This document shows, piece by piece, positions 3,201 to 59,039 of a stretch of DNA of 64,000 nt. The notes under the pieces are model-generated. The model worked only from the letters and a program-made list of their open reading frames with translations. It was not told the DNA's origin and made no database searches. Origin of the DNA: an uncultured Bacteroidales bacterium (GTDB lineage Bacteria; Bacteroidota; Bacteroidia; Bacteroidales; UBA4417); assembly GCA_903946925.1 (NCBI GenBank), contig CAJAXK010000053.1:5558-69557 (forward strand), given 5' to 3'. Every line of letters begins with the position of its first letter. Position 1 is the stretch's first letter. Position numbers and translations under genes: made by a program.

Positions 3201-3396
3201 GGGGTTGGGGGTTTGGGATTGCGGATTGCGGATTGTGGATTGCGGATTACGGATTTTGGATTGCGGATTGCTGATTACGGATTGCTGATTACGGATTTTG
3301 GATTTTGGATTGCGGATTTCAGATTTCGGATTCTGGATTGTGGATTTCGGATTTCGGATTGTGGATTGTGGATTTCAGATTACAGATTTCGGATAG
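3201..3396. repeat. Degenerate heptamer tandem array, unit GGATTNN (about 27 units)
   Basis: Reads ggattgc ggattgc ggattgt ggattgc ggattac ggatttt and so on, without interruption, and abuts the start codon of the S4 gene. Confidence 0.9.
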
Positions 3397-3413
3397 GGAA
3401 TTTATTTTCCGTT

Positions 3414-3458
3414 TTCACTATTTTCTATTCACTATTTTCTATTCACTATTTTCTATTC
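3414..3458. repeat. 14-bp tandem repeat CACTATTTTCTATT x3
   Basis: Three direct head-to-tail copies, ending about 10 bp short of the 3' end (stop codon) of the POT transporter gene. Confidence 0.8.
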
Positions 3459-3466
3459 TCCTTAAA

Positions 3467-4777
3467 CTATTCACTCATTGGCTTTCTCGGTAAAATATAT
3501 TTATTGTACAAAAGCAATCCAATAATGGTCGCAACACCTATCAGACTGAAAATAAACCATAAAACACCGGGTTGATGAAGTTTGTCAACAAAATGAACGT
3601 ACAATGTAGCTCCCAATATCCCGCCAATCCCGCTCCCAATTACACCATAAAGGAATGCATATCCCTGGTACAATGCTTTTTTGTCGGCAGGTGCAATCAA
3701 ACCAACATAAGAAATAAATTTTGGGTGTGCCGTCATTTCACCAATCGAAAATATTACAATCCCACCGATAAAAACCCACGAATAGGTTGAAAGCGAAAGG
3801 ATGGCCATCCCAATTGTGCCTAATGCAATACCGGCAATCATAGTCGGCAGTGCAGGTGTTTTGCGTACAATACTCGAAACCAGCAATTGCAAAAGTATTA
3901 TACATCCCGAACTGATTACGGTAACGTGTTCGGTATCAAATTTCCATGATGGTTCGGAAACAAAAAGCCCAAGAAAAGAATTCACCGCGTTGTTTACCGG
4001 GGTCATATCAATATAATCCTTCAGGTACCAGAGCACGGTATCGAACATTTGAAAATACATGATCCAAAACCCCGAGTAAATAAAAATCATCAACAGGAAA
4101 CGGTAATCTTTCAATACGAGGAAAATACCTTTAAAAACATCTATCAGGGGTTTTGTGCTTTTGGGCCGGGGTGGCTCGCGGTAAACAAATATATTCAGCA
4201 GCAGCATGGAACCTGTACCCACGGCAGCCATCACAAAAATATAGCTCCATCCGATACTTTTCAGGTATGGAACCAGCAGAAGAGGGAAAATAAATGCACC
4301 CAGGTTTATGCTCCAATAATAAATCCCAAAACCAAGCGACGAATTGCTTTCATCCGTAACTCTTGCAATTGTGCCCGAAATAATGGGCTTAAAAAACCCA
4401 GCCCCAATAGCCATAAGTATCAGGCTAAGAAATACCATGCTATACGATGTGGACAAACTGGTGAAAAAATATCCTGTACTCATCACCGTGAAAGCCATCA
4501 TCAGGGTTTTACGGTAGCCAAACCTATCGGCCAAAGCCCCGGCCAGTATTGGCAGGAAATAGAGCAAAGGTGTAATCGTGCTTTTAATTACCCCAACGCT
4601 TTCTTTCGAAAATCCCAATCCGCCTTCGGGAATGCTCAATACCAGATAAACCGAAAGCACCGACATGACCCCATAGTAAGAGCCACGTTCAAAAAACTCC
4701 ATGGTTATTACAGTCCAGAAACTCCGTGGAAACGATTTCATGCCTGGCTTATTCTTTGTGGCTTTCGGATTATTCAT
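3467..4777 (-). CDS. POT/PTR2-family proton-dependent oligopeptide transporter (MFS)
   Basis: 436 aa, multi-TM. The N-terminal MEFFERGSYYGV matches the PTR2 ExxERFxYYG signature. Confidence 0.8.
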   Translation of the reverse strand: MNNPKATKNKPGMKSFPRSFWTVITMEFFERGSYYGVMSVLSVYLVLSIPEGGLGFSKESVGVIKSTITPLLYFLPILAGALADRFGYRKTLMMAFTVMSTGYFFTSLSTSYSMVFLSLILMAIGAGFFKPIISGTIARVTDESNSSLGFGIYYWSINLGAFIFPLLLVPYLKSIGWSYIFVMAAVGTGSMLLLNIFVYREPPRPKSTKPLIDVFKGIFLVLKDYRFLLMIFIYSGFWIMYFQMFDTVLWYLKDYIDMTPVNNAVNSFLGLFVSEPSWKFDTEHVTVISSGCIILLQLLVSSIVRKTPALPTMIAGIALGTIGMAILSLSTYSWVFIGGIVIFSIGEMTAHPKFISYVGLIAPADKKALYQGYAFLYGVIGSGIGGILGATLYVHFVDKLHQPGVLWFIFSLIGVATIIGLLLYNKYILPRKPMSE

Positions 4778-5021
4778 ATTGGTTATTCTAGTTAAATGTT
4801 CTCATGCAAAAGAAAGAAAAATAGTGATACTGTTGATTGCTTATTCTTAAACTGTCCGGATTTCTGATTATGGGATTCACCGATTAATAAGCAAGGTTTA
4901 CAGATGGATTTAATCAACTTGTAGAGAAGCGGCTTAAAAAGTATTGCAATATATTGGTTTTGTTTAATTTAGCAACTTGGATAAGGTTCAAATACATTAA
5001 AAATCATTAATAAAACGTTAG

Positions 5022-5213
5022 ATGCAAAATATAGAGAAAAACTTAAAACTAGCCGGGTATTTGATGCTTGTCCTGGGATTATTTCTACTGCTGCTCAATG
5101 GGGCAATATACTTTTTCAAACTTCAGGCTCAACCAACTTCCAAGTCTTTCGCAATTATGCTGGTTTGCTTTGGTGCATTGTTGGTTCAAAGGGCGAGGGC
5201 TTCCAAATCGTAA
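5022..5213 (+). CDS. Small two-TM hypothetical membrane protein
   Basis: 63-aa ORF with two hydrophobic segments. No family recognised. Confidence 0.3.
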   Translation: MQNIEKNLKLAGYLMLVLGLFLLLLNGAIYFFKLQAQPTSKSFAIMLVCFGALLVQRARASKS

Positions 5214-5377
5214 TACTTTGTTACAAACTGGTTTAAAAAAGGGTGGATATAGCCTACATATTCGGTATTCCCCATGTTTTTAATACCACTTGTAACTTTT
5301 TTGTCTGTCAATTGTCTTAATTACCAGTTCCAATTTTATAACAATCCATTTCTAATTCCAGACCTAAAACCTTGCGT

Positions 5378-8987: not shown

Positions 8988-10088
8988 ATGCCTGAACTTT
9001 TTAGTGAAATTTTAAAAAAAGAAGAATATTCCCAATCCGACCTGGTAGTTTTACTAAATGCACAAGGAAAGGATAGGACTGCCCTTTTTACTCATGCCGC
9101 CGGAATAAAAAAACAGTTTGTTGGCAATAAGGTGTACTTCCGTGGGTTGGTTGAGTTGTCGAATATATGCTCAAAAAACTGCCTGTATTGTGGCATACGT
9201 GCTGGTAACCCTAAGCCTGACCGCTATATGGTAACTGAGGACGAAGTACTTGATGCTGCACGTTTTGCCCTCGAAAATGGCTATGGTTCCATGGTTTTGC
9301 AATCGGGTGAGCGCTGCGATGATAGTTTTGTGGCCACGGTTACAAACCTGCTGCAAAAAATAAAAGAGCTTTCAAACGGCAAACTTGGGATTACCCTTTC
9401 AATGGGCGAGCAAACCGAAAAAACCTACCGCGATTGGTTCGACAATGGCGCACACCGCTATTTGATACGCATCGAAACCTCCGACCGCGAATTGTATTAT
9501 AAAATCCATCCCAACAATAAAAAGCATGATTTCGATGTCCGCATTAACGCTCTGAAAATGCTGCGCCAGATTGGTTACAACGTTGGTTCCGGTGTTATGA
9601 TCGGGTTGCCATTTCAAACCATTGAACATTTGGCCGGCGACTTGCTTTTTTTGAAAAATCTGGATGTGGATATGGTTGGTATGGGGCCGTTTATTGAGCA
9701 TGAGGAAACGCCTCTGTATCAATATAAAGACCTTTTGTGGCTTAAAAAGGAACGGTTTGATATGTCGCTGAAAATGGTTGCCATATTACGTATTATGATG
9801 AAGGACATAAATATCGCCGCAACCACAGCCATGCAAGCAATTGATAAACAAGGCCGTGAAAAAGCATTAAAAGTCGGGGCAAATATTATTATGCCCAATC
9901 TTACCCCTGTTAAATACCGCGAAGATTACCTGCTCTACGAAGATAAACCCTGCCTTGACGAAGATGCCAGCGAATGCCGCAATTGCCTCGAAGCCCGAAT
10001 ACATATTGCCGGCGATGAAATAGGCTTTGGTGAATGGGGCGACTCGAAACATTTTGTTAAGCGGACTTCTTCTTCTAAAGTAGATTGA
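8988..10088 (+). CDS. hydE: Radical SAM enzyme, HydE-like ([FeFe]-hydrogenase maturase / biotin-synthase-related)
   Basis: CSKNCLYCGIRAGNPKPDRYMVTEDEVL..MVLQSGE closely resembles the HydE CxxxCxxC cluster region as remembered. Length 366 aa. Confidence 0.6.
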   Translation: MPELFSEILKKEEYSQSDLVVLLNAQGKDRTALFTHAAGIKKQFVGNKVYFRGLVELSNICSKNCLYCGIRAGNPKPDRYMVTEDEVLDAARFALENGYGSMVLQSGERCDDSFVATVTNLLQKIKELSNGKLGITLSMGEQTEKTYRDWFDNGAHRYLIRIETSDRELYYKIHPNNKKHDFDVRINALKMLRQIGYNVGSGVMIGLPFQTIEHLAGDLLFLKNLDVDMVGMGPFIEHEETPLYQYKDLLWLKKERFDMSLKMVAILRIMMKDINIAATTAMQAIDKQGREKALKVGANIIMPNLTPVKYREDYLLYEDKPCLDEDASECRNCLEARIHIAGDEIGFGEWGDSKHFVKRTSSSKVD

Positions 10089-10104
10089 CCCTTTTATGTA
10101 AAGA

Positions 10105-10230
10105 TGGGAGACAAGGTGAGGGGAGACAAGGAGAAGGGAGACAAGGTGAGGGGAGAAAAGGAGAAGGGAGACAAGGAGAGTGGAGACAGGGAGAGTTGAG
10201 ACAAGGAGAGTGGAGATAAGCAGAGGTGGG
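10105..10230. repeat. Purine-rich degenerate tandem array (GGGAGACAAGGWGA-type units)
   Basis: gggagacaaggtgaggggagacaaggagaagggagacaaggtgagg..., starting directly after the hydE-like stop. Confidence 0.85.
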
Positions 10231-10280
10231 ATTCTTTTTATTAAAGACCCGATTTTTCAACTTAACTTTTATTACAGAAA

Positions 10281-10440
10281 CCCCTCAACCCCTCAACCCG
10301 TCAACAACTAAACCTCTCAACCTCTCAACCTTTCAACCCCTCAACCTTTCAACCCCTCAACCTCTCAACCTCTCAACCCCTCAACCCCTCAACCCCTAAA
10401 CCTCTCAACCTTTCAACCCATCAACTTCACAACCCAACCC
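10281..10440. repeat. Octamer tandem array CCNNTCAA (about 20 units)
   Basis: cccctcaa cccctcaa cccgtcaa ... cctttcaa cccatcaa, running up to the base before the ATG at 10441. Confidence 0.9.
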
Positions 10441-11640
10441 ATGCCAAGAAAACAAATTGCAATTATTGGCGGTGGCCCAGCGGGACTGATGGCTGCTGAT
10501 GTGTTAAGCCCTTTTTGCGATGTAAGTATTTACGACAAGGAAAAAGGCGTAGGACAGAAATTGCTGCTTGCAGGAAAAGGTGGGTTTAATATCACAAATA
10601 GTTTGCTCGGGGAGGAGTTGTACATTAAATACTCGCCTTACCATTTCCTGAAAAATGCTTTGGTTGATTTCGATCCGTCAGCTTTGCGCGAATGGTTGTT
10701 ACAAATGGGGATCCCAACATTCGAAGGTTCAAGCGGCAGGGTTTTTCCCGAAAAAGGGATTACACCAGCCGAGGTATTGAGAAAAATAAAGCAGAAGCTA
10801 ATTTCGCAAGGTGTTAGGTTTCATATAAAACATGAGTTTATAGGTTTTGGTTTAGGAAATGAACTCAAATTCAAGTGCGGCAGCGAGGATACTTTGGTTG
10901 AGGCCGATTACTTTATATTTGCCTTGGGCGGGGCATCCTGGGCCATAACAGGATCCAATGGTAAATGGAAAGGGATTTTTGATTCGGCTGATATTCTTAC
11001 AATTCCATTCCAAGCTTCAAATTGTGGGGTTGAAATCCGCTGGCCGGACGATTTCAGGTTAAACCATACCGGCAAACCTTTGAAAAATATTGCCATAACT
11101 GTAAATGGACAGGTACAAAAAGGCGAAGCTATGATTACCGAATATGGACTGGAAGGAAATGCCATCTATCCGCTTGTACCCGAAATAAGGAAGCTGCTTT
11201 CTCAAAATATGTTCGCACAGATTAACCTTGATTTCAAACCTTTTAATACAGAAGAACAACTTTTGCAAAAGATAAAAGGCAAAACTGCGGCAACCACAAA
11301 AAAATACAGCGAAACCTTCAATTTGCACAATACACAACTTTCAATTATAAAGGCATTTACAACAAAAGAATCATTTTTAAATCCAGAGTTGTTTGTAAAG
11401 AGCTTGAAAAAACTCCAACTCTCGGTCCACGCCTTACGCCCAGTGGAAGAAGCCATTTCAACTATTGGCGGGATTGCATTAAGCGAAATAAACCCCGATT
11501 TTTCATTCAAAAAACTGCCAAACTTTTTTGCCATTGGCGAAATGTTAGATTGGGATGCACCAACTGGCGGGTTTTTATTGCAAGGCAGTTTTGCCATGGG
11601 GCATTGGGTTGGGAAAAAGATTTTGGAAAGAATTGAATAG
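10441..11640 (+). CDS. HI0933/BaiN-like FAD-dependent flavoprotein
   Basis: IAIIGGGPAGLMAA dinucleotide fold, GKGGFNITN, and C-terminal GEMLDWDAPTGGFLLQ. Confidence 0.75.
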   Translation: MPRKQIAIIGGGPAGLMAADVLSPFCDVSIYDKEKGVGQKLLLAGKGGFNITNSLLGEELYIKYSPYHFLKNALVDFDPSALREWLLQMGIPTFEGSSGRVFPEKGITPAEVLRKIKQKLISQGVRFHIKHEFIGFGLGNELKFKCGSEDTLVEADYFIFALGGASWAITGSNGKWKGIFDSADILTIPFQASNCGVEIRWPDDFRLNHTGKPLKNIAITVNGQVQKGEAMITEYGLEGNAIYPLVPEIRKLLSQNMFAQINLDFKPFNTEEQLLQKIKGKTAATTKKYSETFNLHNTQLSIIKAFTTKESFLNPELFVKSLKKLQLSVHALRPVEEAISTIGGIALSEINPDFSFKKLPNFFAIGEMLDWDAPTGGFLLQGSFAMGHWVGKKILERIE

Positions 11641-11644
11641 AGCC

Positions 11645-11962
11645 TCCCCGTAAAGTCAAGTTCAATTTTAGTATGATGTGCGAGTTGCGATAGATGAATA
11701 TTGCTCTTAGAAAATAAATCGTACACTATATATCTCCATGCCTACATTCTGATTTAAACCAAGTCAATAATTATAATATAAATAATTGACCTTTAAAACT
11801 TTATCCGAAAAACACGCATTATATTTGATTTAGGCTTTTAGGCTTTAAGACTGTTAGGCTGTTAGGGCTTTTCTAATCAAATATTACTTCATATTCCACA
11901 TTATCGCATAACATGGTGAACCCCCAAAACCAACCCCTAACCCCTAAAAGCTTAATCCCTGA
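11645..11962. repeat. Composite intergenic repeat, copy 2 (longest copy)
   Basis: The 5' part (11645-11775) matches 44100-44232. The 3' part (11747-11960) matches 2111-2338. It contains a TTAGGC-type arm and a complementary CCCTAA-type arm. Confidence 0.6.
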
Positions 11963-12937: not shown

Positions 12938-13160
12938 CACAAATGCTGATTGTTTTGCAGGAAAAATATAACTTCTCTTGAACGTAGGTTTGTTCACGGG
13001 AAGTTTTTTTTGCTTTTATTTTCCGAGGCGGCTTAGATTAGTCGGGGCGGCTTTTTCGGTCACCCCGACAATAAAGGCATTAGACACACAAACAACAAAG
13101 AAAGCAGTTTTGGGGTGAGCGAAAAGTCGCCCAGCCACATGTCGAAAGTGATCCTATTAT

Positions 13161-13438: not shown

Positions 13439-13445
13439 AAAACCA

Positions 13446-13453
13446 TACCTTTG
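13446..13453 (+). promoter_or_regulatory. Candidate -7 box TACCTTTG for valS
   Basis: Matches TAnnTTTG 36 nt upstream of the valS ATG. Confidence 0.45.
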
Positions 13454-13488
13454 CACCCTCAAAAAAAACAAAAACTTTTATTATATTT

Positions 13489-48456: not shown

Positions 48457-48506
48457 ATTAGTTTTCTTGCTATTTAATGTGAATTCCTTTTAAGTGGATT
48501 TTGGTT

Positions 48507-50423: not shown

Positions 50424-50425
50424 AT

Positions 50426-50553
50426 TATTGGGTAATGGTTAATGGGAAATGGTTATTAGTAATGGTCATGCTTTGTAAATGATTGTTCTTGGTTTTCATC
50501 TTGGTAGAAATTCAGGGAGCATTTTCAAATTTTCAAATCCCCAAATTTTCAAA
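50426..50553. repeat. Short arrays in the nuoL-nuoK spacer (GGTTAAT-type units and CAAATTTT units)
   Basis: attgggtaatggttaatgggaaatggttattagtaatgg and cattttcaaattttcaaatccccaaattttcaaatt. Confidence 0.75.
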
Positions 50554-50871
50554 TTAAAATTTCATTTCATTAACATTGTCAACATCTATCGACCTGAAAT
50601 TACGGTAAATATTGATTATTATCGCAATGGCAACAGCAGCTTCGGCGGCGGCAATGGCAATTATGATAAGGGTGAAGAAATGGCCTTGCAGGTTTTGTGG
50701 ATACAAATATTTATTGAACGCTACAAAGTTAATATTCACGGAATTGAGAATCAACTCAATTGACATAAGCATGGTTATCAAGTTTTTACGGGTAAGAAAA
50801 CCGTAGATTCCAATGAAAAACATCAGAGTGCTGATTACCAGGAAATATTGCAATGGTATGGTTCCGGTCAT
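50554..50871 (-). CDS. nuoK: NADH-quinone oxidoreductase subunit K
   Basis: 105 aa, three TM segments. MSIELILNSVNINFVAF is typical of NuoK/ND4L. Confidence 0.9.
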   Translation of the reverse strand: MTGTIPLQYFLVISTLMFFIGIYGFLTRKNLITMLMSIELILNSVNINFVAFNKYLYPQNLQGHFFTLIIIAIAAAEAAVAIAIIINIYRNFRSIDVDNVNEMKF

Positions 50872-50879
50872 TTGTTAGT

Positions 50880-51046
50880 TTGCTAATTGGTTGATGGGTT
50901 TATTGGTTGATTGGTTGAAGGGTTTATTGGTTAAGTGGTTGATGGGTTTAGTGGTTGATGGGTTTTGAAACTCTGTTATTAGTATGATAATAACCACATT
51001 ACCGAATTACCACATTATCGCATTTTCACATTTCCACATTATCGCA
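50880..51046. repeat. Octamer array GGTTNANN followed by CCACATTA(YC)GCAT words in the nuoK-nuoJ spacer
   Basis: ggttgatg ggtttatt ggttgatt ggttgaag ... then accacattaccgaattaccacattatcgcattttcacatttccacattatcgcatt. Confidence 0.9.
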
Positions 51047-51568
51047 TTATTTAATTATCGCACTGTCCTTTTCTTTACGAGCTACTATAATTGCCCCTAT
51101 TAAAGCAGCGAGTAGTAGTAGCGAAATAACTTCGAATGGAAGTGCAAATCCATCCCGTTCGTAAGAGATAAGTGCATTTCCAACATCGGTAACAGAGGAA
51201 GTTTGTGCCGGTAAATCTGATTTTATGAAGGTAAATTGAAAAATGGTAATTAAGGTCAACAATGCTCCGGCTCCAACAGCCAAGGCCGAGAGTAGGCTTT
51301 GTTTCATATCGGCCATAATTGCTTTTTCGCTGATGTGGCTTGTAAGAAGTACTGAAAATATAATCAGTACAACAATACCACCGGCATATACTGTAAGTTG
51401 CACTGCTGCAAGGAAAGTATATTCGAGCATAAAGTAAATGGCGGCTGTTGATATAAGTACAAAAAGCAGGTAAACAGCAGCCCGCAATATTTTCCGGCTT
51501 GTAACGGTAAGCACCGAAAACACCAGGATCATTCCGGCCAGAAGGTAAAACATTACTTCACTATTCAT
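51047..51568 (-). CDS. nuoJ: NADH-quinone oxidoreductase subunit J
   Basis: 173-aa hydrophobic protein in the nuoJ position. VYAGGIVVLIIF resembles the NuoJ/ND6 core. Confidence 0.85.
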   Translation of the reverse strand: MNSEVMFYLLAGMILVFSVLTVTSRKILRAAVYLLFVLISTAAIYFMLEYTFLAAVQLTVYAGGIVVLIIFSVLLTSHISEKAIMADMKQSLLSALAVGAGALLTLITIFQFTFIKSDLPAQTSSVTDVGNALISYERDGFALPFEVISLLLLAALIGAIIVARKEKDSAIIK

Positions 51569-51599
51569 TGTATTTTGCTATTTTAAATTTATTGAGGAT

Positions 51600-51879
51600 C
51601 TTTTGGATGTATGTGGTTGATTCAGTTGTTATTCAGTTGTTTATTCAATTGTCATTCGGTTGACATTCATGGTTGATTCGATGGTCATTCGTGGTTGATT
51701 CGGTTGTCATTCGATGGTTGATTCGGTTGTCATTAGTTGTCATTAGTTGTCATTCATGGTTAATTCAGTTGTCATTAGGTTAATTTTGTGAAAAGATTCC
51801 ACTATTAACCATTTTCCATTAACCATTTTCCATTAACTATTTTCCATTAACCATTAACTATTAACCAATAACTATTAAC
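51600..51879. repeat. Two-armed degenerate array in the nuoJ-nuoI spacer (GGTTGATTC/GTTGTCATT units, then CCATTAAC 7/14-mers)
   Basis: ggttgattcagttgttattcagttg...gttgtcattagttgtcattagttgtcatt, a short spacer, then ccattttccattaaccattttccattaactattttccattaaccattaac. Confidence 0.9.
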
Positions 51880-52362
51880 TTATTCCTTTATCCCCTCCAT
51901 GATCTTTGATCCAGGCTGGTTCAGCACTTTTGTCATGGATGTGCGGTTCCAATAGGCATGTTCGAAATTCTGTCCCATAACAATTGCATCCGATGGACAT
52001 GTTTTAACACACAAATTGCAAAAGGTACACATACTCAAATGGTAAATGTGCTGGTCGATAACCCGCTTTTTCTTGCCTTCTTCGTTTACAATGGATTTAG
52101 AAATTATTTCTATCGAGCCATTCGGACAGTTTATTTCGCAAATTCCACATCCTGTGCATTTATGCTCGTTGTTTTCGTTGTGCGGCATAATTACCTCACC
52201 ACGGAAACGCTCATACATAACAAGGGTATCGCGGTTTTCAGGATATTGCTGGGTGACATTTTTCCATGGAGTGAAAAAATACTTTGCAGTAACTTTCATA
52301 CCGGTTAGCAAGCTCCAGATTGCAGAGAATATTTCAGCTATATAAGCGAAGAATGATTTCAT
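51880..52362 (-). CDS. nuoI: NADH-quinone oxidoreductase subunit I
   Basis: Two 4Fe-4S motifs, CTGCGICEINCP and CTFCNLCVKTCP. Confidence 0.9.
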   Translation of the reverse strand: MKSFFAYIAEIFSAIWSLLTGMKVTAKYFFTPWKNVTQQYPENRDTLVMYERFRGEVIMPHNENNEHKCTGCGICEINCPNGSIEIISKSIVNEEGKKKRVIDQHIYHLSMCTFCNLCVKTCPSDAIVMGQNFEHAYWNRTSMTKVLNQPGSKIMEGIKE

Positions 52363-52487
52363 CTGTTATTATTTATTTTTTAGGGGTCAGATGTAATATG
52401 CCAGATTGATTATTTGCAACCTCCCGTTGGTGGTTTATACCAATCATGGCTATTTCATGTTTAGTTAATGTTATCAGGTTCAAAATT

Positions 52488-53576
52488 TTACCAATGCCAG
52501 CCCAATAAAACCATGGTTGCCATTAAAAGTATATTGAATAGGTTAATGGGTAAAAGATATTTCCATTCTAAGGTGAGTATTTGGTCAATCCTTAGGCGCG
52601 GGAAAGTCCATTTGAACCACATGATTAGAAATATTATCCCAAACACTTTCAAGAAAAACCAAATTAGTCCTGGAATGAAATCCATTACAGCATTGAACCC
52701 TTCGAAGTTTCCAAAATGGAAAGGCATCCAACCACCAAGGAAAACTATGGTAGCCATTGCTGCAACAATGAATAGGTTTATATATTCGGCCAAGAAAAAG
52801 AAAGCAAATTTAATACCCGAATATTCGGTGTGGAATCCGGCAGTGAGTTCCGATTCGGCTTCAGCAAGGTCGAAAGGCCCGCGATTGGTTTCGGCTGTTC
52901 CTGCTACAACAAAAACAAAAAATGCTATAATGGCTGGGATATGACCTTTAAACAAAAACCATCCTCCACGCTGCAATTCAACAATTTCCGAAATCTGCAT
53001 TGTGCCTGCCATAATTACCATGGTAATCAGCGACATCCCTACCGAAAGCTCGTAACTTACAATCTGTGCACCACTACGCATGCCGCCAATAAGCGAATAT
53101 TTGTTGTTGCTGGCCCATCCCGCAAGCAATACGCCAATTACCCCAACTGACGAAACTGCTGTTACAAAGAAAATACCTATGTCGAAATCAAGGGCTTGCA
53201 AACCAGGTGCAAAAGGTATTACTGAAATGGTAAGGAACGGAACAATGATTACAATAAATGGGGCAAGGTTATAAAGGAATTTGTCAACGCTTTTTGGGGT
53301 AATCAATTCTTTCATCAACAACTTTACAAAGTCGGCGATGGTTTGCAGCAAACCCCATGGACCTACCCTCATTGGGCCTAAACGCTGTTGGAATGCAGCG
53401 CAGACCTTCCGCTCGACATATACAAGCAAAAGCCCGAAAACTGCAATAAACAGTAGGAACAAAACACCGATAATAGTCCATTCAATAATCAGTGTAAGCA
53501 ATGGAGAAACGTTTTCAATCAATCCCTGATGAATGGATTGGGTGAGGGGTGTAAAATCGTATTTTTCGAATGCCAT
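52488..53576 (-). CDS. nuoH: NADH-quinone oxidoreductase subunit H
   Basis: 362 aa. [26 protein letters not shown] and [14 protein letters not shown] are NuoH/ND1 signatures. Confidence 0.92.
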
Positions 53577-53692
53577 TCTTAAATGGTTTTATCAGATTTT
53601 TAACTAATTAGGTTTTTCAGCTACCTTTTGTGATCAATACTTCACTGAATTTTCTTTGATTGCTAATGTATTTTTTATATAGTTTTTCTCTA

Positions 53693-53745
53693 CCAATTCC
53701 CCTTACCATTTTCCATTAACTATTTTCCATTAACTAGTTCCCCTG
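53693..53745. repeat. CCATTAAC-family array in the nuoH-nuoD spacer
   Basis: ccaattccccttaccattttccattaactattttccattaactagttcc. Confidence 0.8.
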
Positions 53746-53752
53746 TAAGAAC

Positions 53753-54889
53753 CTACCGATCAATATCAGGAATTACAAGGTCGAATGTTGCCATAATGGC
53801 CACGAGGTCGGCTATTTTCCAGTTTTTAGCTATATGGTTTATCGTGAACAGGTTTGAGAAGCCTGGCGAACGGAATTTTACGCGATAGGGGTTTTTCTTT
53901 CCATCGCTCACAATATACACACCAAGCTCGCCACGGGCAGTTTCAACACGTTGATAAAATTCTCCTTCAGGAAGTTTAATCACACCTTTCATTTTCAAAG
54001 CGTAATCACCCTCAGGGATATTGTCAATCAGTTGCTCGATTATATGCAACGATTCCCACATCTCGTCCATCCTGAGTTTCCAGCGCATAAACGAATCGCC
54101 ATCGGTACCCAATTTTTCTTCAAATTTCACAAGCGGGTAGGCACTGTAAGGATGATGTTTGCGAACATCGCAGCTAAAGCCTGAAGCCCTGCCTGTTGGC
54201 CCGGTAACGCCAAATGCAATTGCATCTTCCTTTGATAAAACACCAACCCCTTTTGTACGGTTTTGGAAAATGATATTGCCGGTTAGCAATTTATCGTATT
54301 CGGGCAGTATTTTTTTGAATTTCGTGATGAAGGCTTTAACCTTGCGCTGGAAGTTGGGATGTATATCGAACATCACTCCGCCAGGTACGGTGTAATTTAA
54401 GGTCAAACGGGCACCACATGTTTCTTCAAAAATATCCAGAATATCCTCGCGGTCGCGCAAACCATAAAAGAAAGCGGTAAGCGCACCCAAATCCATCCCC
54501 GAGGCACACCACCATAATTGGTGCGAAGCCAAACGTTGAAGTTCATCAAAAATGGTACGGATATATTTTACTCGTTCCGGCACTTCGACCTGTAATGCGT
54601 TTTCCACACATAAACAAACTGCTTCATTGTTCATGTGCGCCGACAGATAGTCCATTCGGTCAGTGAGATGCGGAATCTGGGGATAGGTGAGCGACTCGGT
54701 CATTTTTTCGATCCCACTATGGATGTATCCAACATGAGGCTCAACATTATGAACGATTTCCCCTTCAAGTTTTACAAGCAACCTAAGAACGCCGTGCGTA
54801 CTTGGATGCTGTGGACCCATATTTACCAGATATTCATCAGTCTTGATCTGGTCGGTTGTGGATATGAATTTTTCAATGATTTCGGCCAT
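53753..54889 (-). CDS. nuoD: NADH-quinone oxidoreductase subunit D
   Basis: NMGPQHPSTHGVLRL near the N-terminus; C-terminal LVIPDIDR. Confidence 0.93.
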   Translation of the reverse strand: MAEIIEKFISTTDQIKTDEYLVNMGPQHPSTHGVLRLLVKLEGEIVHNVEPHVGYIHSGIEKMTESLTYPQIPHLTDRMDYLSAHMNNEAVCLCVENALQVEVPERVKYIRTIFDELQRLASHQLWWCASGMDLGALTAFFYGLRDREDILDIFEETCGARLTLNYTVPGGVMFDIHPNFQRKVKAFITKFKKILPEYDKLLTGNIIFQNRTKGVGVLSKEDAIAFGVTGPTGRASGFSCDVRKHHPYSAYPLVKFEEKLGTDGDSFMRWKLRMDEMWESLHIIEQLIDNIPEGDYALKMKGVIKLPEGEFYQRVETARGELGVYIVSDGKKNPYRVKFRSPGFSNLFTINHIAKNWKIADLVAIMATFDLVIPDIDR

Positions 54890-54891
54890 AA

Positions 54892-55347
54892 CTATCTTTC
54901 TACAACGTGGATATCATCGTGAAAATCTTTGCGGAGCGGGAACCCCCATGTATCATCAAGGAAAAGCCTGCGCAAATGTGGATGATTATTGAATTTGATC
55001 CCAAGCAAGTCGAATATCTCGTCCTCGTGAAATTCAGCAGTTGGCCAAATATCCGAAACCGTATCCAAAACTGTTGTTACCCTATCTTCGGTATTGGCTT
55101 TGACAACCAAATAATGTTTATGCTTAGTTGATTCGAGATGGTAAACAACCTGGATAAATGTAGGATAATCAACGCCAGATTGACAAAACAGATAATCGAA
55201 AGCCAAATTTGGATCCGATTTTAAGTTGAGCATAAAAGCGTGGAGCAATTCCTTGGGGACATTAATTTCAGGATACTGGTTGCCTTGTTTGGCTACAGCA
55301 TCTGGGTAGGCTTTTGAAAGGTGATCTATAAGTTGTTCGTTTGTCAT
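54892..55347 (-). CDS. nuoC: NADH-quinone oxidoreductase subunit C
   Basis: 151 aa. ...WPTAEFHEDEIFDLLGIKFNNHP..RRLFL matches the NuoC 30-kDa-subunit signature. Separate from nuoD. Confidence 0.88.
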   Translation of the reverse strand: MTNEQLIDHLSKAYPDAVAKQGNQYPEINVPKELLHAFMLNLKSDPNLAFDYLFCQSGVDYPTFIQVVYHLESTKHKHYLVVKANTEDRVTTVLDTVSDIWPTAEFHEDEIFDLLGIKFNNHPHLRRLFLDDTWGFPLRKDFHDDIHVVER

Positions 55348-55401
55348 GGCCTGAAATGTTTTCGGATTTTGCCTTTAAGGGTATTTCCCAAATGCGAACC
55401 C

Positions 55402-55938
55402 TTATTTAGCTAAACTTTTTTTAAAGTTCTTCTCCCTTTTTATCTTTTTCTGCAATTGCAGGAAGGCGTACAGCAATGCTTCCGGTCGTGGTGGGCAGCC
55501 TGGAACGTATATGTCAACAGGTATTACATGGTCGGCACCTTTAACTATTGCATAGGAATTATAAAAAAACGGCCCACCCGAAACTGCACATGCCCCCATG
55601 GCAATTACATACTTGGGGTCAGCAATTTGGTCGTACAATCGCTTTAGGACTGGAGCCATTTTATAATTGATGGAACCAGAAATTATGATCATGTCAGCCT
55701 GACGTGGGGTTGCCCTGGCGACTTCGTAACCAAACCGGGCCATATCGTGCCTCGAAGCACCAACAGCCATAAATTCGATTGCGCAGCACCGTGTACCGAA
55801 AGTCAATGGCCAAACCGAATTAGCCCTTGACCAGTTAACTAATGCATCTAATTGCGTGAGTATTATACTGCCCCCTTCGTATTGTTCCAATATAGGGAAG
55901 TCGTTTTTCTCGAATTCTTTCTTTGATGTTATTCCCAT
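55402..55938 (-). CDS. nuoB: NADH-quinone oxidoreductase subunit B
   Basis: Start taken at the ATG at 55938 (MGITSKK...); the track ORF is extended upstream over nuo[36 protein letters not shown]. Confidence 0.92.
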
Positions 55939-56279
55939 TTCAATGCATGTTTTTTCCAGCCATATAAAAGGCCGAGACCTAAAATGAAGAAGAAGATGAG
56001 TATTTCGATGTAGCCTGTCATTCCTGCGGTTTTCATCACAACAGCCCAAGGAAACACAAACACTGTTTCCACATCGAAAATAAGGAAGATGATGGCAAAA
56101 AGGTAATAGCCCACGGTATATTGCAACCATGAACCGCCAATGGTCTCAATCCCACATTCGTAAGGCTCAAATTTGGCAGGGTTATACGATGTTGGTGGCA
56201 CAAAACTGGAAAAAAGCATCGCCCCTCCCACAAGTACCACAGCAACAATAAAAAAAAGTACTAATGCACTACTATCCAT
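55929..56279 (-). CDS. nuoA: NADH-quinone oxidoreductase subunit A
   Basis: 116 aa, three TM segments. [23 protein letters not shown]. Overlaps the nuoB start by 10 nt. Confidence 0.9.
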
Positions 56280-56959: not shown

Positions 56960-57109
56960 CTATTTCCCAATTCCCTTCATCCTTTCCTGTTAACCTGTTA
57001 TCGAGAACCTGTTCCCGATAACCATGTCCCGATAACTATCTCTCATTAACCATTTCCCAATAACTAACTCCCATTAACTATTCCTCGATAACCAATAACC
57101 AATAACCAA
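56960..57109. repeat. Degenerate C/A/T-rich array (CCCAAT, CGATAAC, CCATTAAC, CCAATAAC words)
   Basis: ...ttcccgataaccatgtcccgataactatctctcattaaccatttcccaataactaactcccattaactattcctcgataaccaataaccaataaccaat. It abuts the stop of the YhdH-like gene. Confidence 0.8.
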
Positions 57110-58114
57110 TTAGCTACATTTGTGCTCAACCACAACCCTACCAGTTATCCCTCCTTGAAGGATTTTTTCTATTTTATTTTGAAGTTGGTTTAAACCAACC
57201 ATGTCTATTTCGATAGAACTAAAATTTGGTTTCCAATCACCTGATAGTTTTGCCCACAATTCTTTTCTTACATTCATTGGAGTGGTTGCCGAGTTTACAC
57301 CCAATAGATTGACCCCATTTAATATAAATGGAAAAACGCTGGTGCTGAGTAGGGGAGAAGCCACATTGCCACAACATGCCAAGTTTCCATGGGTTTTTAG
57401 GGATTTTAAAACAGTGGCTAATGTGTTGCCTCCAACAGTGTCAATTGCTCCAGCCCATTGCGGGCGAAGGAGCATTTTTCCTGATTTATCATCAACAACA
57501 TCCCTTTCAACTATAGATTTTGCACCTAAGCGTTCCAAATATTCCTTTTTATCAGACTTTCCAGTCGAAGCGGTAACGTTGAAGCCTAATTTTGAAGCAA
57601 TTGCAACCGAAAGGCTGCCAACCCCGCCTGTTGCACCGGTAACGAGTAGTGTTCCGTCTTCAGGTTTCTGTCCGCTGCGGATTAGGTGGTGCATTGAAAG
57701 GGCAGCGGTAAAACCGGCGGTTCCTAAAATCATGCTTTCTTTGAGACTAAGTCCGGTTGGCAAGGAAACAACCCATTCTGCCGGGACATTTATATATTCG
57801 CCAAAACCGCCCATGGTACTCATCCCCAGATCGTAACCTGTAACAATTACCTCATCGTCGGGATTAAAATTTGTAGAATTGCTTTCGACAACGGTTCCTG
57901 CCGCATCAATTCCGGGAGTATGTGGATAGCGGCGGGTTACCCCTTTATTGCCTGAAGCTGATAAAGCATCTTTATAATTGAGGGATGAATAGGCAACCTT
58001 GATCAAAACCCCGTTTTGAGGCAGTTCGTCAGTGTTTCGCTGGATAATTTGGTTTTTGAAAGTCCCATCGGCTTCTTCAGTAACCCAATAGGCATTGAAA
58101 AGTATGTTCTTCAT
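57110..58114 (-). CDS. YhdH/AcuI-family NADPH:quinone / acrylyl-CoA reductase (MDR superfamily)
   Basis: SSLNYKDALSASGNKGVTRRYPHTPGIDAAGTV and VTGATGGVGS. Confidence 0.8.
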   Translation of the reverse strand: MKNILFNAYWVTEEADGTFKNQIIQRNTDELPQNGVLIKVAYSSLNYKDALSASGNKGVTRRYPHTPGIDAAGTVVESNSTNFNPDDEVIVTGYDLGMSTMGGFGEYINVPAEWVVSLPTGLSLKESMILGTAGFTAALSMHHLIRSGQKPEDGTLLVTGATGGVGSLSVAIASKLGFNVTASTGKSDKKEYLERLGAKSIVERDVVDDKSGKMLLRPQWAGAIDTVGGNTLATVLKSLKTHGNLACCGNVASPLLSTSVFPFILNGVNLLGVNSATTPMNVRKELWAKLSGDWKPNFSSIEIDMVGLNQLQNKIEKILQGGITGRVVVEHKCS

Positions 58115-58206
58115 AGAAGGTTAATTTGAAAATGTTGCCCTAAAGCTGAACAGTAAAGGATAACAAGCAAGATTTTTTAGAAATCCATATAAAATCAAAA
58201 TAGTAT

Positions 58207-58278
58207 TCCCCAATCCCCAATCCAACATCTGACATCCAACATCTAACATCCGCCATCCAACATCCCACATCCCACATC
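58207..58278. repeat. Heptamer array NNNCATC/CCAATCC (reverse orientation of the GGATNNN family), abutting the smpB stop
   Basis: ccccaat ccccaat ccaacat ctgacat ccaacat ctaacat ccgccat ccaacat cccacat cccacat. Confidence 0.9.
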
Positions 58279-58728
58279 CTAATCCTCATGTCGCCTGTCC
58301 ATTTCCCGTTTATTATCCTTCGTTTTCAGGGTTTCGCGCTTGTCGTACATTTTCTTTCCTTTTGCAATGGATATTGTAACCTTGCAAAAACCTTTATCGT
58401 TGATAAACATTTCGAGGGGAACAATGGTAAGACCTTTTTCGCGGGTTTTACCAATTATTTTTTTTAGTTCGCGGCGGTTGAGTAAAAGTTTTCGTGCCCG
58501 TTTGGCGATATGGTTAAACTGATTCCCGAATTTATATTCCGAAATATGCGCATTTAGCAGATAAAGTTCATCGCCTTCGAAAGCGCAGTAGCTATCGGTA
58601 AGGTTTACTTTGCCTTCGCGGACTGATTTAATTTCAGTACCAAGTAGTATTATGCCAGCCGTAAACTGCTCAACGAGAAAATACTCGAAGCCAGCCTTTT
58701 TGTTCTTTATGGTGATAATGTTTGCCAT
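58279..58728 (-). CDS. smpB: SsrA-binding protein
   Basis: Start at the ATG at 58728 (MANIITIKNKKAGFEYFL..GTEIKSVREGKVNL); the track ORF runs on through the repeat array. Confidence 0.9.
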   Translation of the reverse strand: MANIITIKNKKAGFEYFLVEQFTAGIILLGTEIKSVREGKVNLTDSYCAFEGDELYLLNAHISEYKFGNQFNHIAKRARKLLLNRRELKKIIGKTREKGLTIVPLEMFINDKGFCKVTISIAKGKKMYDKRETLKTKDNKREMDRRHED

Positions 58729-58735
58729 GATGGCG

Positions 58736-58743
58736 CAAAGGTA
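58736..58743 (-). promoter_or_regulatory. Candidate -7 box TACCTTTG only 7 nt upstream of the smpB ATG
   Basis: The plus strand reads caaaggta at 58736-58743; the ATG complement is at 58726-58728. Confidence 0.35.
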
Positions 58744-58744
58744 G

Positions 58745-59039
58745 GAAATTAACGATTTCGGATTGGGGATTTCGGATTGGGGATTTTGGATTTTGGATTT
58801 TGGATTTCGGATGTGGGAAGTTTGATGTGGGATGTTGGATGTTGGATTTTGGATGTTGGATTTTGGATGTTGGATTTTGGATTTTGGATTTTGGATTTGG
58901 GAAGTTGGATGTGGGAAGTTGGATTTGGGATGTTGGATTTGGGATTGCCTAAACCCATAAACCCATAAACGCCTCAACCTATAACCCCATCAACCTATCA
59001 ACCCCTCAACCCCTCAACCTATAAACCCATCAACCCCAA
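58745..59039. repeat. Heptamer array GGATNNN (58745-58958) joined to octamer array NNTNAACC (58959-59039)
   Basis: ggatttc ggattgg ggatttt ... ggatgtt ggatttg, then cctaaacc cataaacc ... cctcaacc catcaacc. It fills the whole spacer from the TonB-receptor stop to the smpB promoter. Confidence 0.9.

Follow-up and report, generated by a model that had tools for sequence, protein, structure and literature searches.

Gene-end polarity of short-unit tandem arrays in the intergenic DNA of an uncultured Bacteroidales bacterium

Introduction

Microsatellite-like long simple sequence repeats form a class known from Nostoc, Xanthomonas and a small number of other bacteria, heptamers being the best-known form. 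Long simple sequence repeats were treated by Mrazek et al. 2007, here as far as summarised in PMC4679880. For the G-rich heptamers of Xanthomonas and Nostoc (PMC4692102), GGGAATC and GGGGA(T/C)T, quadruplex formation has been proposed, and a polarity rule has been published for such G-quadruplex-forming heptamers (Rehm et al. 2015, PMC4692102), in which the strand leading away from the adjacent gene is rich in G and nearly devoid of C. A translational role has also been proposed for the TAACTGA repeats (PMC4679880) and for the Nostoc heptamers (bioRxiv 10.1101/2022.06.06.494920). The arrays described here show the same polarity in a Bacteroidales/Lentimicrobiaceae metagenome-assembled genome, which is not a cyanobacterium. 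Moreover, Xanthomonas and Nostoc use Shine-Dalgarno sequences, whereas Bacteroidia do not.

Results

Array content and word families

Arrays were called with Tandem Repeats Finder, with coverage figures for scores of at least 45. In the window (the whole 64,000-nucleotide stretch analysed), array DNA amounts to 2,345 bp, against a mean of 26.6 bp and a maximum of 74 bp in 20 dinucleotide-preserving shuffles. Most of it (2,240 of 2,345 bp, 96%) falls in the 11,439 intergenic bases that make up 18% of the window, which confirms the array-filled spacers described in the first-pass annotation, and 14 of the 40 spacers bear arrays. Every array listed in that annotation was recovered within a few bases; as it had described, arrays often span from a stop codon to the next promoter or start codon. 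Its six word families, few, recurrent and present in both orientations, were all found:

Family 1, GGAT[T/G]NN: 3216-3394 and 58754-58946; reverse complement at 26908-27017 and 58207-58279
Family 2, AACCNNTC: 10279-10435 and 58952-59036; reverse at 50886-50964
Family 3, TTAAC-containing 7/14-mers: 51804-51879, 53708-53736 and 56991-57110; reverse at 50425-50466
Family 4, 16-mer: 13161-13399
Family 5: 13355-13430 and 50521-50555
Family 6, 14-mer CCACATTATCGCAT: exact at 11896, 13424, 51010 and 51034

Allowing up to two mismatches, the family-6 word has 6 matches against 0.57 expected. The dominant periods in the window and its relatives are 7, 8, 14, 16, 21 and 24; most arrays have 0% indels and keep their register, with a unit identity of 70-95%, and higher-order units of 14, 21, 40 and 42 bp reach 88-100%. 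Five further arrays (3414-3458, 10102-10226, 50993-51062, 51616-51778 and 61753-62065) and two weak ones (2199-2315 and 11829-11947) were absent from the earlier list. Outside the nuo operon, the arrays are as follows:

3216-3394, plus (the G-rich strand): heptamer GGATT[G/T][C/T], 25.6 units; pre-start array of a 70-aa S4-domain gene (2979-3191, minus), ending 25 bp before the ATG; sense strand reads GCAATCC, G 10%, C 32%
3414-3458, minus: 14-mer TAGAAAATAGTGAA, 3.2 units, 100% match, sense strand C-free; begins 8 bp past the stop of an MFS/oligopeptide-symporter-like gene (3467-4777, minus)
10102-10226, plus: 15-mer AGAGGGGAGACAAGG, 8.3 units; begins 13 bp past the stop of a radical-SAM gene (8988-10088, plus)
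10279-10435, minus: octamer AACCCCTC (read on the plus strand, which is sense), about 19 units, G 1%, C 50%; ends 5 bp before the ATG of a flavoprotein gene (10441-11640, plus)
11829-11947, unstranded: convergent spacer with three elements, namely TTTAGGCT x5.4 (11829-11872, G/T-rich on the plus strand), a single copy of the family-6 word (11896-11909) and AACCCCT x2.3 (11932-11947)
13161-13430, minus: 16-mer CACATCCTCAAATT[T/C]C, about 15 units, 95% identity, valS sense strand G-free; the 16-mers pass into CCAAATTTTCAAATT units and the family-6 word, with a TAnnTTTG -7 box (13446-13453) and the valS ATG (13489) lying downstream
26908-27017, minus: heptamers GCGGATT / GTCGGAT (sense) with a 14/21-bp higher order; begins at the radC stop codon (27018)
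56991-57110, minus: 14/28/42-bp units TCGGGAACAGGTTA, ATGGGAGTTAGTTA and GGTTATT; abuts the stop of a zinc-dependent alcohol-dehydrogenase-like gene (57110-58114, minus)
58207-58279, minus: heptamers GTTGGAT / GTCGGAT x8.6 and TTGGGGA x2.4 (sense); begins at the smpB stop codon (58279)
58754-58946, plus: heptamer GGAT[T/G]T[T/G], 27.6 units; sense strand AAAATCC / AACATCC, G 2%, C 39%; ends about 10 bp upstream of the TACCTTTG -7 box (58743-58736), smpB ATG at 58728
58952-59036, minus: octamer GATGGGTT x10.6 (sense); begins 3 bp past the stop of a TonB-dependent receptor gene (59040-61520, minus)
61753-62065, unstranded: 21/42-bp array in a divergent spacer, 6.6 units of 42 bp with 88% identity, plus strand C/A-rich; a longer unit class, beyond the range that the first-pass annotation covered

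Polarity at gene ends

Which of the two orientations an array has is tied by a strict rule to the gene end closest to it, a relation absent from the first-pass annotation. For arrays no more than 30 bp from a gene end, the strand leading away from the adjacent gene is G-rich and C-poor in 88 versus 6 arrays (59 versus 4 at stop codons, 29 versus 2 at start codons), counts in which gene calls are ORF-based and the orthologous spacers of related species are non-independent observations. In the window the rule holds for 16 of 16 arrays, or for 17 of 17 if the 70-aa gene is added to the annotation.

On the start side, the sense strand of pre-start arrays holds no NTG triplet in 489 bp of the window and 14 in 1,169 bp of the relatives, compared with 73 and 163 on the antisense strand. 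The sense RNA is also essentially unfoldable, at -0.012 kcal/mol per nt versus -0.10 for the antisense (20 of 21 arrays). With arrays masked, non-repeat DNA within 20 nt upstream of starts is G-depleted too in the clade (GC skew -0.30). A shortage of AUG near starts and a requirement for unstructured translation-initiation regions are described for Bacteroidia (PMC6847099).

On the stop side, 22 of 55 post-stop arrays overlap the stop codon, 43 of 55 hold stops in all three frames, and stop triplets number 348 against 260 +/- 9 expected. Non-repeat DNA after stops has no skew in the clade. The post-stop units GTTGGAT and GCGGATT are without any stop triplet.

The nuo operon and its relatives

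The following arrays lie between cistrons of the nuo operon:

50425-50466, plus: CCATTAA / CCATTTC units (sense), G-free; ends 1-2 bp before the nuoL ATG (50423)
50521-50555, minus: octamer TTGAAAAT x4.4 (sense), C-free; overlaps the nuoK stop codon
50886-50964, plus: octamers CAACCAAT / AAACCCAT (sense), G 0%, C 39%; ends 14 bp before the nuoK ATG (50871)
50993-51062, minus: AATGTGGT / ATGCGATA units (sense), the family-6 word; overlaps the nuoJ stop codon and last codons
51616-51778, plus: 11/22-mer GACAACTGAAT (sense), pre-start for nuoJ (ATG 51568); at least 10 related species have its unit family GAATGAC[CA]AC in their orthologous spacer
51804-51879, minus: heptamers GGTTAAT / GGAAAAT (sense), C-free, about 11 units; abuts the nuoI stop codon (51880)
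53708-53736, minus: 14-mer AGTTAATGGAAAAT x2.1; begins 17 bp past the nuoD stop (53753)

No internal -7 box was found in the operon where these arrays lie. In outgroups, the internal nuo spacers measure about 0-50 bp, in a few cases as much as about 100, and hold no arrays, except for small Tandem Repeats Finder hits in single spacers of L045. In the clade delimited by a NuoH identity of at least 94%, these spacers grow to as much as 572 bp, and the expanded ones are not the same from species to species; the close species L015 and L018 have no arrays in the fetched locus. Baseline spacers are conserved, with arrays inserted directly 3' of the stop codon, and some, such as the one at nuoL, have taken the place of the ancestral translation-initiation region all the way to the ATG. 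Most species of the clade retain arrays in the nuoI-nuoJ spacer, which is 70 bp shorter in one contig. Units of orthologous arrays are related but species-specific. By these comparisons, the arrays are specific to one Lentimicrobiaceae-like lineage.

Turnover in whole units

A comparison of the window with strain L091 reveals a single differing site, the heptamer array 58754-58946, with changes of -21 bp and -14 bp and base substitutions, while the flanks show 0 differences over 1,189 + 450 + 164 bp. In strain L087, the octamer array 58952-59036 is longer by one unit (+8 bp) and its units are homogenised. Thus whole units or blocks (7, 8, 14, 21 bp) are gained and lost, by replication slippage or unequal exchange, and arrays are homogenised internally and divergent between species. 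Expansion stops at unchangeable sequence: a stop codon limits it on one side, and on the other a promoter, a translation-initiation region or a start codon. Within units, minimal-event counts by position show no constrained binding core (68 zero-event positions versus 64.8 +/- 3.3 expected, p = 0.20).

Discussion

Among the functions suggested in the first-pass annotation, slippage-prone spacer DNA fits best, because strains differ by +8, -14 and -21 bp between identical flanks, the kind of unit-number variation it had proposed to look for. We give about an even chance to the explanation that the arrays are slippage-driven, microsatellite-like satellite DNA, spread through the intergenic DNA of the lineage and filtered by orientation-dependent constraints at gene ends. 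The neighbouring gene would then decide which orientation survives. Beside a start codon, the sole tolerated orientation would be the one with a G-free sense strand, and in Bacteroidia, which lack Shine-Dalgarno sequences, additional AUG, GUG or UUG triplets and RNA structure upstream of the start would be harmful. Beside a stop codon, the array would be seeded from, or include, the C-free stop codon, and would then remain C-free and rich in stop triplets.

This filter accounts well for the start side, since the pre-start sense strand is NTG-poor and unfoldable and non-repeat upstream DNA is likewise G-depleted. The fit is loose on the stop side, because non-repeat post-stop DNA is unskewed and some post-stop units lack a stop triplet. 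Moreover, the same polarity in the Shine-Dalgarno users Xanthomonas and Nostoc (PMC4692102) means that a reason specific to Bacteroidia cannot be the whole story. Also, the valS and smpB arrays are upstream of the best -7 box and so may fall outside the mRNA of those genes, and the persistence of nuoI-nuoJ arrays in most species of the clade could also mean maintenance.

It is possible but rather unlikely that the arrays are adaptive RNA-level modules. The G-free array would be a structure-free and start-codon-free landing pad for initiation without Shine-Dalgarno sequences, perhaps via ribosomal protein S1 or cold-shock proteins, and the C-free array a stop-rich trailer ending stray translation in every frame. 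The unfoldable, NTG-free pre-start RNA, the replacement of the initiation region at nuoL, the enrichment of stop triplets and the translational roles proposed for TAACTGA repeats and Nostoc heptamers are all consistent with this. Nonetheless, in close species and every outgroup, array-free spacers of 30-60 bp suffice for expression of these nuo genes, the expanded spacer varies by species, some arrays lie upstream of the promoter, and unit positions are without constraint.

It is improbable that the arrays are Rho-loading insulators, in which a C-rich, G-poor, untranslated and unstructured arm would be a rut-like site ending read-through or antisense transcripts that enter the gene. The strand running into the gene is, on either side, C-rich, G-poor, NTG-free and unstructured over 80-190 nt, and a 190-nt array (C 39%, G 2%) does separate a riboswitch-controlled receptor gene from the smpB promoter. 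However, termination would be harmful between nuo cistrons, where arrays lie without an internal -7 box. Cyanobacteria are not known to possess Rho. The same polarity is nonetheless reported in Nostoc, a cyanobacterium (PMC4692102). A similarly slim chance attaches to the idea that a protein binds along the arrays by recognising a 7-8-nt register in double- or single-stranded nucleic acid; it might be a regulator, a nucleoid protein or a protein of the cold-shock or RRM type. The strict register (0% indels), the invariance of cores such as GGAT (76 of 76 units in four arrays) and the same families at unlinked loci would suit such a protein, but the spread of minimal mutational events along the unit agrees with chance (p = 0.20), close species differ in the unit sequences of their orthologous arrays, and many unit families stand side by side.

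Long imperfect hairpins or cruciforms between G/T-rich and C/A-rich arms, acting as terminators, REP-like mRNA stabilisers or in translation coupling, are very improbable. On the plus strand, the G-rich arm precedes the C-rich arm in 15 spacers versus 2 in reverse, and 10089-10440 has a minimum-free-energy fold consisting of a single long stem (-93 kcal/mol). The fold predictions nevertheless fail to sustain the hairpins suggested in the first-pass annotation: three two-arm spacers show no extra stability over dinucleotide shuffles (z = +1.71, -0.07 and +0.68), cognate arms pair no more strongly than arms from different loci (p = 0.42), many spacers have one arm only, and in 58741-59039 the C-rich arm is left with about 160 unpaired nt. 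The terminator candidate fares no better, no intrinsic-terminator pattern being found within the arrays. G-quadruplex or i-motif elements, as proposed for the Xanthomonas and Nostoc heptamers, are just as hard to credit. The gene-end polarity is shared with those repeats and some units carry GGGG or GGG runs (10279-10435, 58952-59036). Yet the canonical motif, four runs of at least three G with loops of at most 7 nt, occurs in 0 of 94 strongly skewed arrays; two-tetrad motifs alone occur in 25 and none in 69, and the units TGAATAG, AGTGAAA and TTGAAAAT cannot form quadruplexes yet obey the polarity.

Finally, assembly artefacts, CRISPR arrays or coding repeats can be practically dismissed. The L087 scaffold is interrupted by Ns within its long heptamer array, which shows that short-read assemblers struggle there, but the array sequence is identical in at least 5 independent assemblies from different samples and arrays are present in the single-contig, complete chromosomes OY762227.1 and OY782677.1, which excludes an artefact. 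As the first-pass annotation had argued, unique spacers are lacking, the 7- and 8-bp periods are not divisible by 3, and the open reading frames through the arrays (3213-3575 and 13115-13606, both plus, and a TTG-started smpB extension to 58977) are spurious. In addition, stops fall in all frames and Rfam gives no match in the arrays.

If satellite DNA filtered at gene ends is the true explanation, the arrays would have no dedicated function in this lineage; they would be filler that the genome tolerates, and any influence on expression in cis would be mild at most.

Extent and composition of the arrays

Tandem Repeats Finder, run on the whole window, returned 73 rows and recovered every array of the first-pass annotation, with boundaries a few bases off those first assigned. 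Also, the following arrays, absent from that list, were found:

3414-3458, tandem array
10102-10226, tandem array
50993-51062, tandem array
51616-51778, tandem array
61753-62065, plus strand, 21/42-bp tandem array

At a score of at least 45, arrays cover 2,345 bp of the window, as compared with a mean of 26.6 bp and a maximum of 74 bp in 20 dinucleotide-preserving shuffles. The proposed intergenic location holds for 2,240 of these 2,345 bp, which fall within the 11,439 intergenic bases (18% of the window), the other 105 bp being inside coding sequence. According to an ORF-based gene map, 14 of the 40 spacers in the window hold arrays. The dominant periods, both here and in related genomes, are 7 and 8 bp and their multiples, and the longest array has 27.6 units. 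Direct reading of the units confirmed a constant register free of indels, with two or three variable positions per unit. The word that defines family 6, CCACATTATCGCAT, has exact matches at four sites, and six matches are found when up to two mismatches are allowed, against 0.57 expected.

CRISPR arrays consist of 24-48-nt repeats separated by unique spacers of similar length. The units observed here are contiguous, 7-16 nt long and without spacers, which excludes CRISPR, as had been argued from the sequence. Moreover, the arrays do generate spurious ORFs, as well as false N-terminal extensions; for example, the smpB ORF is lengthened by 83 codons.

Two repeats of other kinds were observed. 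A 21-bp repeat of 2-2.3 copies at 29527-29579 lies within a 587-aa ORF (28777-30540, no Pfam match), where it is coding and keeps the reading frame; it has no relation to the intergenic arrays. The array at 61753-62065, in the divergent spacer between a riboswitch-controlled receptor gene and an unannotated 351-aa ORF, belongs to a repeat class distinct from the 7/8-mers, its 42-bp unit being present in 6.6 copies with 88% identity (61788-62065). It contains several matches to the sigma-70 consensus, TTGACA-17-GACAAT / TACAAT.

Presence of the arrays in independent assemblies

An exact-protein look-up with NuoK led to the nuo locus in assemblies from several samples and studies. One of these loci (L081) is 100% identical to the window, and four others (L082, L083, L084 and L086) are 99.55-99.95% identical without gaps, showing 0-1 spacer differences in 666-917 bp and 3-12 differences in coding sequence. 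Arrays are also present in the single-contig chromosomes OY762227.1 (locus L006) and OY782677.1 (locus L010). The possibility of an assembly artefact, which the first-pass annotation had named among the findings that would refute its observation, is thus set aside, as independent assemblies reproduce the arrays; the artefact, coding and CRISPR readings are all disfavoured.

In one short-read scaffold (L087), the orthologue of 58754-58946, at about 1400-1500, is interrupted by Ns that fall precisely within the long heptamer array. Such arrays are a probable cause of broken contigs in the MAGs of the group.

Host and neighbouring genes

The genes and elements relevant to the arrays and their surroundings are as follows:

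2979-3191, minus strand, 70-aa S4-domain gene (Pfam S4_2, E = 1e-22), under the usual ORF length cut-off
30977-38380, plus strand, 2,467-aa non-ribosomal peptide synthetase with two adenylation, one condensation, an internal formyltransferase and thioesterase domains
39181-44052, minus strand, adjoining the synthetase, 1,623-aa protein carrying a sorting tail for type IX secretion
44263-56279, minus strand, 11-subunit nuo operon (nuoABCDHIJKLMN, without nuoEFG)
52488-53576, minus strand, NuoH, 94-98% identical to MAGs labelled Bacteroidales or Lentimicrobiaceae
55402-56130, longest nuoB ORF, overlapping nuoA (55929-56279) and probably over-extended at its 5' end
58728, minus strand, ATG start of smpB (149 aa)
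59040-61520, TonB-dependent receptor gene
61544-61635, minus strand, TPP riboswitch (Rfam RF00059, 56.4 bits), directly upstream of the receptor gene
61651-61644, -7 box TACTTTTG, by the riboswitch and the receptor gene

Within the nuo operon, arrays lie between nuoD and nuoH, nuoI and nuoJ, nuoJ and nuoK, and nuoK and nuoL. Other array neighbours are valS, smpB, radC, the TonB-dependent receptor, a radical-SAM gene and a flavoprotein gene. The neighbours are housekeeping genes, neither surface nor phase-variable. The receptor, with its TPP riboswitch, probably imports thiamine or a thiamine precursor. For smpB, the TTG at 58977 that opens the longest ORF was rejected, this ORF passing through the heptamer array.

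Polarity of the arrays at gene ends

Arrays located at most 30 bp from a gene end follow a simple rule, in which the strand reading away from the adjoining gene is G-rich and C-poor. The rule is obeyed by 59 arrays at stop codons and broken by 4, and the corresponding values at start codons are 29 and 2. By group, it holds for 16 of 16 cases in the window, for 51 against 2 in the close clade and for 14 against 4 in the mid-distance group. An apparent exception in the window, the array at 3216-3394, vanishes once the 70-aa S4-domain gene (start at 3191) is recognised, giving 17 of 17; this 25-unit heptamer array ends 25 bp before the start codon of that gene. Where a spacer holds two arms, the G-rich arm precedes the C-rich arm on either strand in 15 cases, the order being reversed in 2. 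A mutational strand bias of replication or transcription cannot cause this polarity, because neighbouring G-rich and C-rich arrays share the same spacer within a single operon.

The arrays that precede start codons contain few NTG triplets on the sense strand (none in 489 bp of the window, 14 in 1,169 bp of the relatives), as compared with 73 and 163, respectively, on the antisense strand. Also, they are practically unfoldable as sense RNA, at -0.012 kcal/mol per nt versus -0.10 for the antisense. In this clade, the 20 nt before starts are still G-depleted when arrays are masked (GC skew of -0.30), and the region after stops, equally masked, shows no GC skew. Among 55 post-stop arrays, 22 overlap the stop codon and 43 carry stops in all three frames, the total of stop triplets being 348 against an expectation of 260 +/- 9.

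With respect to promoters, the best TAnnTTTG -7 box of valS and smpB sits between the array and the ATG, which places these arrays upstream of the promoter. In the nuo spacers that hold arrays no -7 box was found, and the arrays separate cistrons predicted to form a single operon; from this layout we infer that they are transcribed. The smpB box, TACCTTTG (58728-58743 region, minus strand), is conserved in two related loci (L088 and L091) and ends only 8 nt before the ATG, so the mRNA may be leaderless or nearly leaderless.

RNA structure, terminators and quadruplexes

The long imperfect hairpins that had been suggested for spacers with paired G/T-rich and C/A-rich arrays find no support in the folding of the sense RNA, since dinucleotide shuffles are just as stable as the best three spacers with two arms (z = +1.71, -0.07 and +0.68). 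Moreover, cognate arms co-fold no better than non-cognate ones (15 versus 188 pairs, p = 0.42). The partial complementarity of the arms is a by-product of composition. A role as terminators, another of the functions first considered, fares no better: no intrinsic-terminator pattern (a G+C-rich hairpin followed by a T run) occurs inside any array, and the window as a whole has 27 such sites versus 20.7 +/- 4.7 in shuffles. An Rfam search of the window returned only a tRNA-Glu and the TPP riboswitch and nothing in the arrays, which argues against a known RNA family. Finally, the canonical G-quadruplex (G3+) motif is found in 0 of 94 skewed arrays, 69 of them being without any motif, and a quadruplex reading is disfavoured by this result.

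In the spacer at 10089-10440, the stretch 10227-10278 between the G-rich and the C-rich arrays contains a small hairpin with a T run, GGGATTCTTTTTATTAAAGACCCGATTTTT, and a near-match to the -7 box, TAACTTTT. These elements suggest the order 3' UTR array, terminator, promoter and 5' leader array.

Variation between species and strains

Every internal nuo spacer was measured in 80 related loci. In outgroups with 76-83% identical NuoH, among them Prolixibacteraceae, most spacers span about 0-50 bp, a few reaching up to about 100 bp, and they hold no arrays except for small Tandem Repeats Finder hits in single spacers of one locus (L045). In the clade with NuoH at least 94% identical, the same spacers hold arrays and reach up to 572 bp, the expanded spacer differing by species. 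For example, seven species have a nuoD-H spacer of 55-60 bp, and other species one of 141-522 bp; for nuoK-L, the length is 33-35 bp in seven species and ranges from 102 to 572 bp in other species. No expansion is seen in nuoC-D (2 bp), nor in nuoL-M and nuoM-N, which measure about 52 and about 35 bp, respectively. Two close species (L015 and L018) have no arrays within the fetched locus, and four loci at 83-90% identity (L019, L021, L026 and L028) have many. By array load, the window, L001-L014 and these four loci are array-rich, and L015, L018, L027 and L029 are array-poor.

Alignment by eye of baseline and expanded spacers placed the array insertion point immediately behind the stop codon. 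At nuoH and nuoJ, the conserved initiation block in front of the next ATG is retained, and at nuoL it is replaced. The units after nuoI are TGAATAG, AGTGAAA, GTTAATG or AGTTATG depending on the species, and the unit before nuoJ is GAATGAC[CA]AC. Orthologous arrays with related but species-specific units represent concerted evolution within arrays.

Further strains were reached by a look-up with SmpB (start at 58728). In one of them (L091), the sole differences from the window are in the 27-unit heptamer array, comprising deletions of 21 and 14 bp and base substitutions, the flanks being identical over 1,189 bp within the receptor gene, 450 bp within smpB and the 164-bp downstream spacer. In L087, one octamer is added (+8 bp) and the units are homogenised, and in one contig the nuoI-nuoJ spacer is 70 bp shorter. 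The variation in unit number that was to be sought by comparing related genomes is therefore present, with strains differing by +8, -14 and -21 bp and spacers of species ranging from 33 to 572 bp. These strain differences indicate that entire units are gained or lost in the long, homogeneous arrays, which is the behaviour expected of slippage or unequal exchange. However, hypervariability is not a property of all the arrays: it is confined to the long, homogeneous ones, whereas the degenerate arrays are stable, those of the nuo operon being identical in strains 99.5-100% identical to the window.

Small dispersed elements were also observed between arrays, in the nuoI-nuoJ spacers of four related loci (L009, L011, L012 and L025) and the nuoD-nuoH spacer of another (L003). 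One has the form GACA(A)TTTTTGTCAGGCTGAGCGGAGTCGAAGCC, and L003 has two copies of CCCTTCGGGGAGATGTCCGAAGGACAGAGGGG. These elements look like REP- or MITE-type hairpin repeats.

Comparison with known repeats

The observation is real and of a kind already described. The sole detailed study of placement, by Rehm et al. 2015, shows that GGGAATC in Xanthomonas and GGGGA(T/C)T in Nostoc PCC 7120 obey the same polarity, the G-rich strand being coding immediately downstream of stops, where repeats often overlap the stop codon, and non-coding immediately upstream of starts (PMC4692102). The locations of those repeats are conserved and their lengths vary, no link to phase variation was found and no function was assigned, the emphasis being on G-quadruplex formation (PMC4692102). 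The arrays reported here are likewise head-to-tail heptamers, overwhelmingly intergenic and near ORF ends, and their spacers are shared across related genomes with highly variable length and sequence and without a link to surface or phase-variable genes. Also, the strand rule given for 0-50 bp after stops or before starts is reproduced (59 versus 4 and 29 versus 2, respectively). However, the host of the window is a member of the Bacteroidota, many unit families and lengths (7, 8, 11 and 14-16 bp) coexist instead of one dominant heptamer, and the arrays lack a canonical quadruplex motif, extend to greater lengths (up to 27 units) and fill spacers inside operons. No copy of tandem GGGAATC or GGGGA(T/C)T occurs in the window, and four or more G3+ tracts able to form a quadruplex, as in the Rehm repeats, are found in none of the 94 arrays.

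Long simple sequence repeats, with units of 5-11 nt, were defined by Mrazek, Guo and Shah in 2007, heptamers being the commonest and polymerase slippage the proposed origin (as summarised in PMC4679880). The arrays resemble them in having units of 7-11 nt, a length far longer than chance, a bias to non-coding DNA and a sporadic distribution across the phylogeny. The lineage of the window is not included in that survey, which, as summarised, does not describe gene-end polarity. Moreover, MacGregor 2015 reported TAACTGA direct repeats in Beggiatoaceae, some Cyanobacteria and five Bacteroidetes, in fixed orientation within a few nt upstream of starts, mostly in 2-6 copies and with strain indels in 7-nt steps; long mixed heptamer arrays occur in some Bacteroidetes (Gramella, Aequorivita and Elizabethkingia) (PMC4679880). 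Our arrays share with the TAACTGA repeats the intergenic location, the heptamer, the orientation and the proximity to start codons, but they also abut stop codons and have C-free or G-free three-letter units. Tandem TAACTGA is absent from the window.

Other classes are more distant. Cyanobacteria were the group in which bacterial heptamer repeats were first described. Short tandemly repeated repetitive (STRR) sequences are heptamers of heterocystous cyanobacteria, reportedly described by Mazel et al. in 1990, and like them the arrays are tandem heptamers scattered through the non-coding DNA of a genome. A cyanobacterial origin or STRR identity is rejected, since the host belongs to the Bacteroidales/Lentimicrobiaceae (NuoH 94-98%) and the STRR units CCCCAGT, TTGGTCA and CAACAGT are not in tandem in the window. 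With REP/BIME elements and contingency-locus microsatellites, the arrays share being intergenic, sometimes transcribed within operons and variable in copy number. However, they have no palindromic unit and no folding beyond composition, in contrast to REP/BIME elements or structured RNAs, and they differ from contingency loci in having 7-8-nt instead of the typical 1-5-nt units and in lying beside housekeeping genes (nuo, valS, smpB and radC) rather than surface-antigen genes. Unlike both, the degenerate arrays are stable among strains. A literature search combining Lentimicrobium and tandem repeats gave nothing relevant.

Origin and meaning of the arrays

Taken together, the evidence shows that the arrays are satellite DNA of the slippage type, expanded within a single lineage. 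They fill whichever intergenic space is free, and the adjoining gene would act as a filter on their orientation. Beside a start codon, the sole tolerated orientation would be the one with a G-free sense strand; near a stop codon, arrays would have the C-free stop codon as their seed, or contain it, and would remain stop-rich. The start-side filter fits the translation of Bacteroidia, where Shine-Dalgarno sequences are unused, AUG is depleted around starts and initiation regions need to be free of structure (PMC6847099). On the other hand, the stop-side logic is the weaker part, and the occurrence of the same polarity in bacteria that use Shine-Dalgarno sequences makes the filter account incomplete.

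The arrays could instead be adaptive leader or trailer modules, a possibility of lower probability. The same grade applies to Rho-loading insulators, for which the likeness to rut sites lies in composition alone (C-rich, G-poor, unstructured and untranslated). Protein-binding tracks are also possible at lower probability, but no constrained binding core was detected within the units. Such a core is suggested by GGAT, invariant in 76 units, but the minimal mutational events on a spanning tree of unit types are spread over the unit positions in a way that fits chance (p = 0.20).

Considered without transcription, the C-free G/T/A strand runs 5' to 3' from each gene end to the middle of the spacer (15 versus 2), which is the strand geometry of telomeres. 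The arrays could then be scars of break repair, in which, after a double-strand break in the spacer, a C-avoiding, slippage-prone polymerase or reverse-transcriptase-like enzyme extends both 3' ends by short reiterated units before rejoining. This would explain why start and stop ends alike show the polarity, why the composition is limited to three letters, why arrays abut the first base that cannot be lost and why the bursts are sporadic and lineage-specific; nonetheless, the unit sequences are locus-specific and evolve in place, and higher-order block duplication is seen, and we consider this origin very improbable.

In practical terms, the arrays lengthen spacers inside operons from tens of bases to hundreds and break short-read assemblies, and they are the fastest-changing sites between strains, for which they could serve as markers. 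Moreover, the lineage is a natural control, showing gene-end polarity in a third phylum, with many unit families, no quadruplex potential and Shine-Dalgarno sequences not read. These features point away from quadruplexes and towards a three-letter rule, namely no G on the strand reading into the gene. The main value of the arrays lies in providing a quadruplex-free instance of the gene-end polarity rule, which makes the rule testable.
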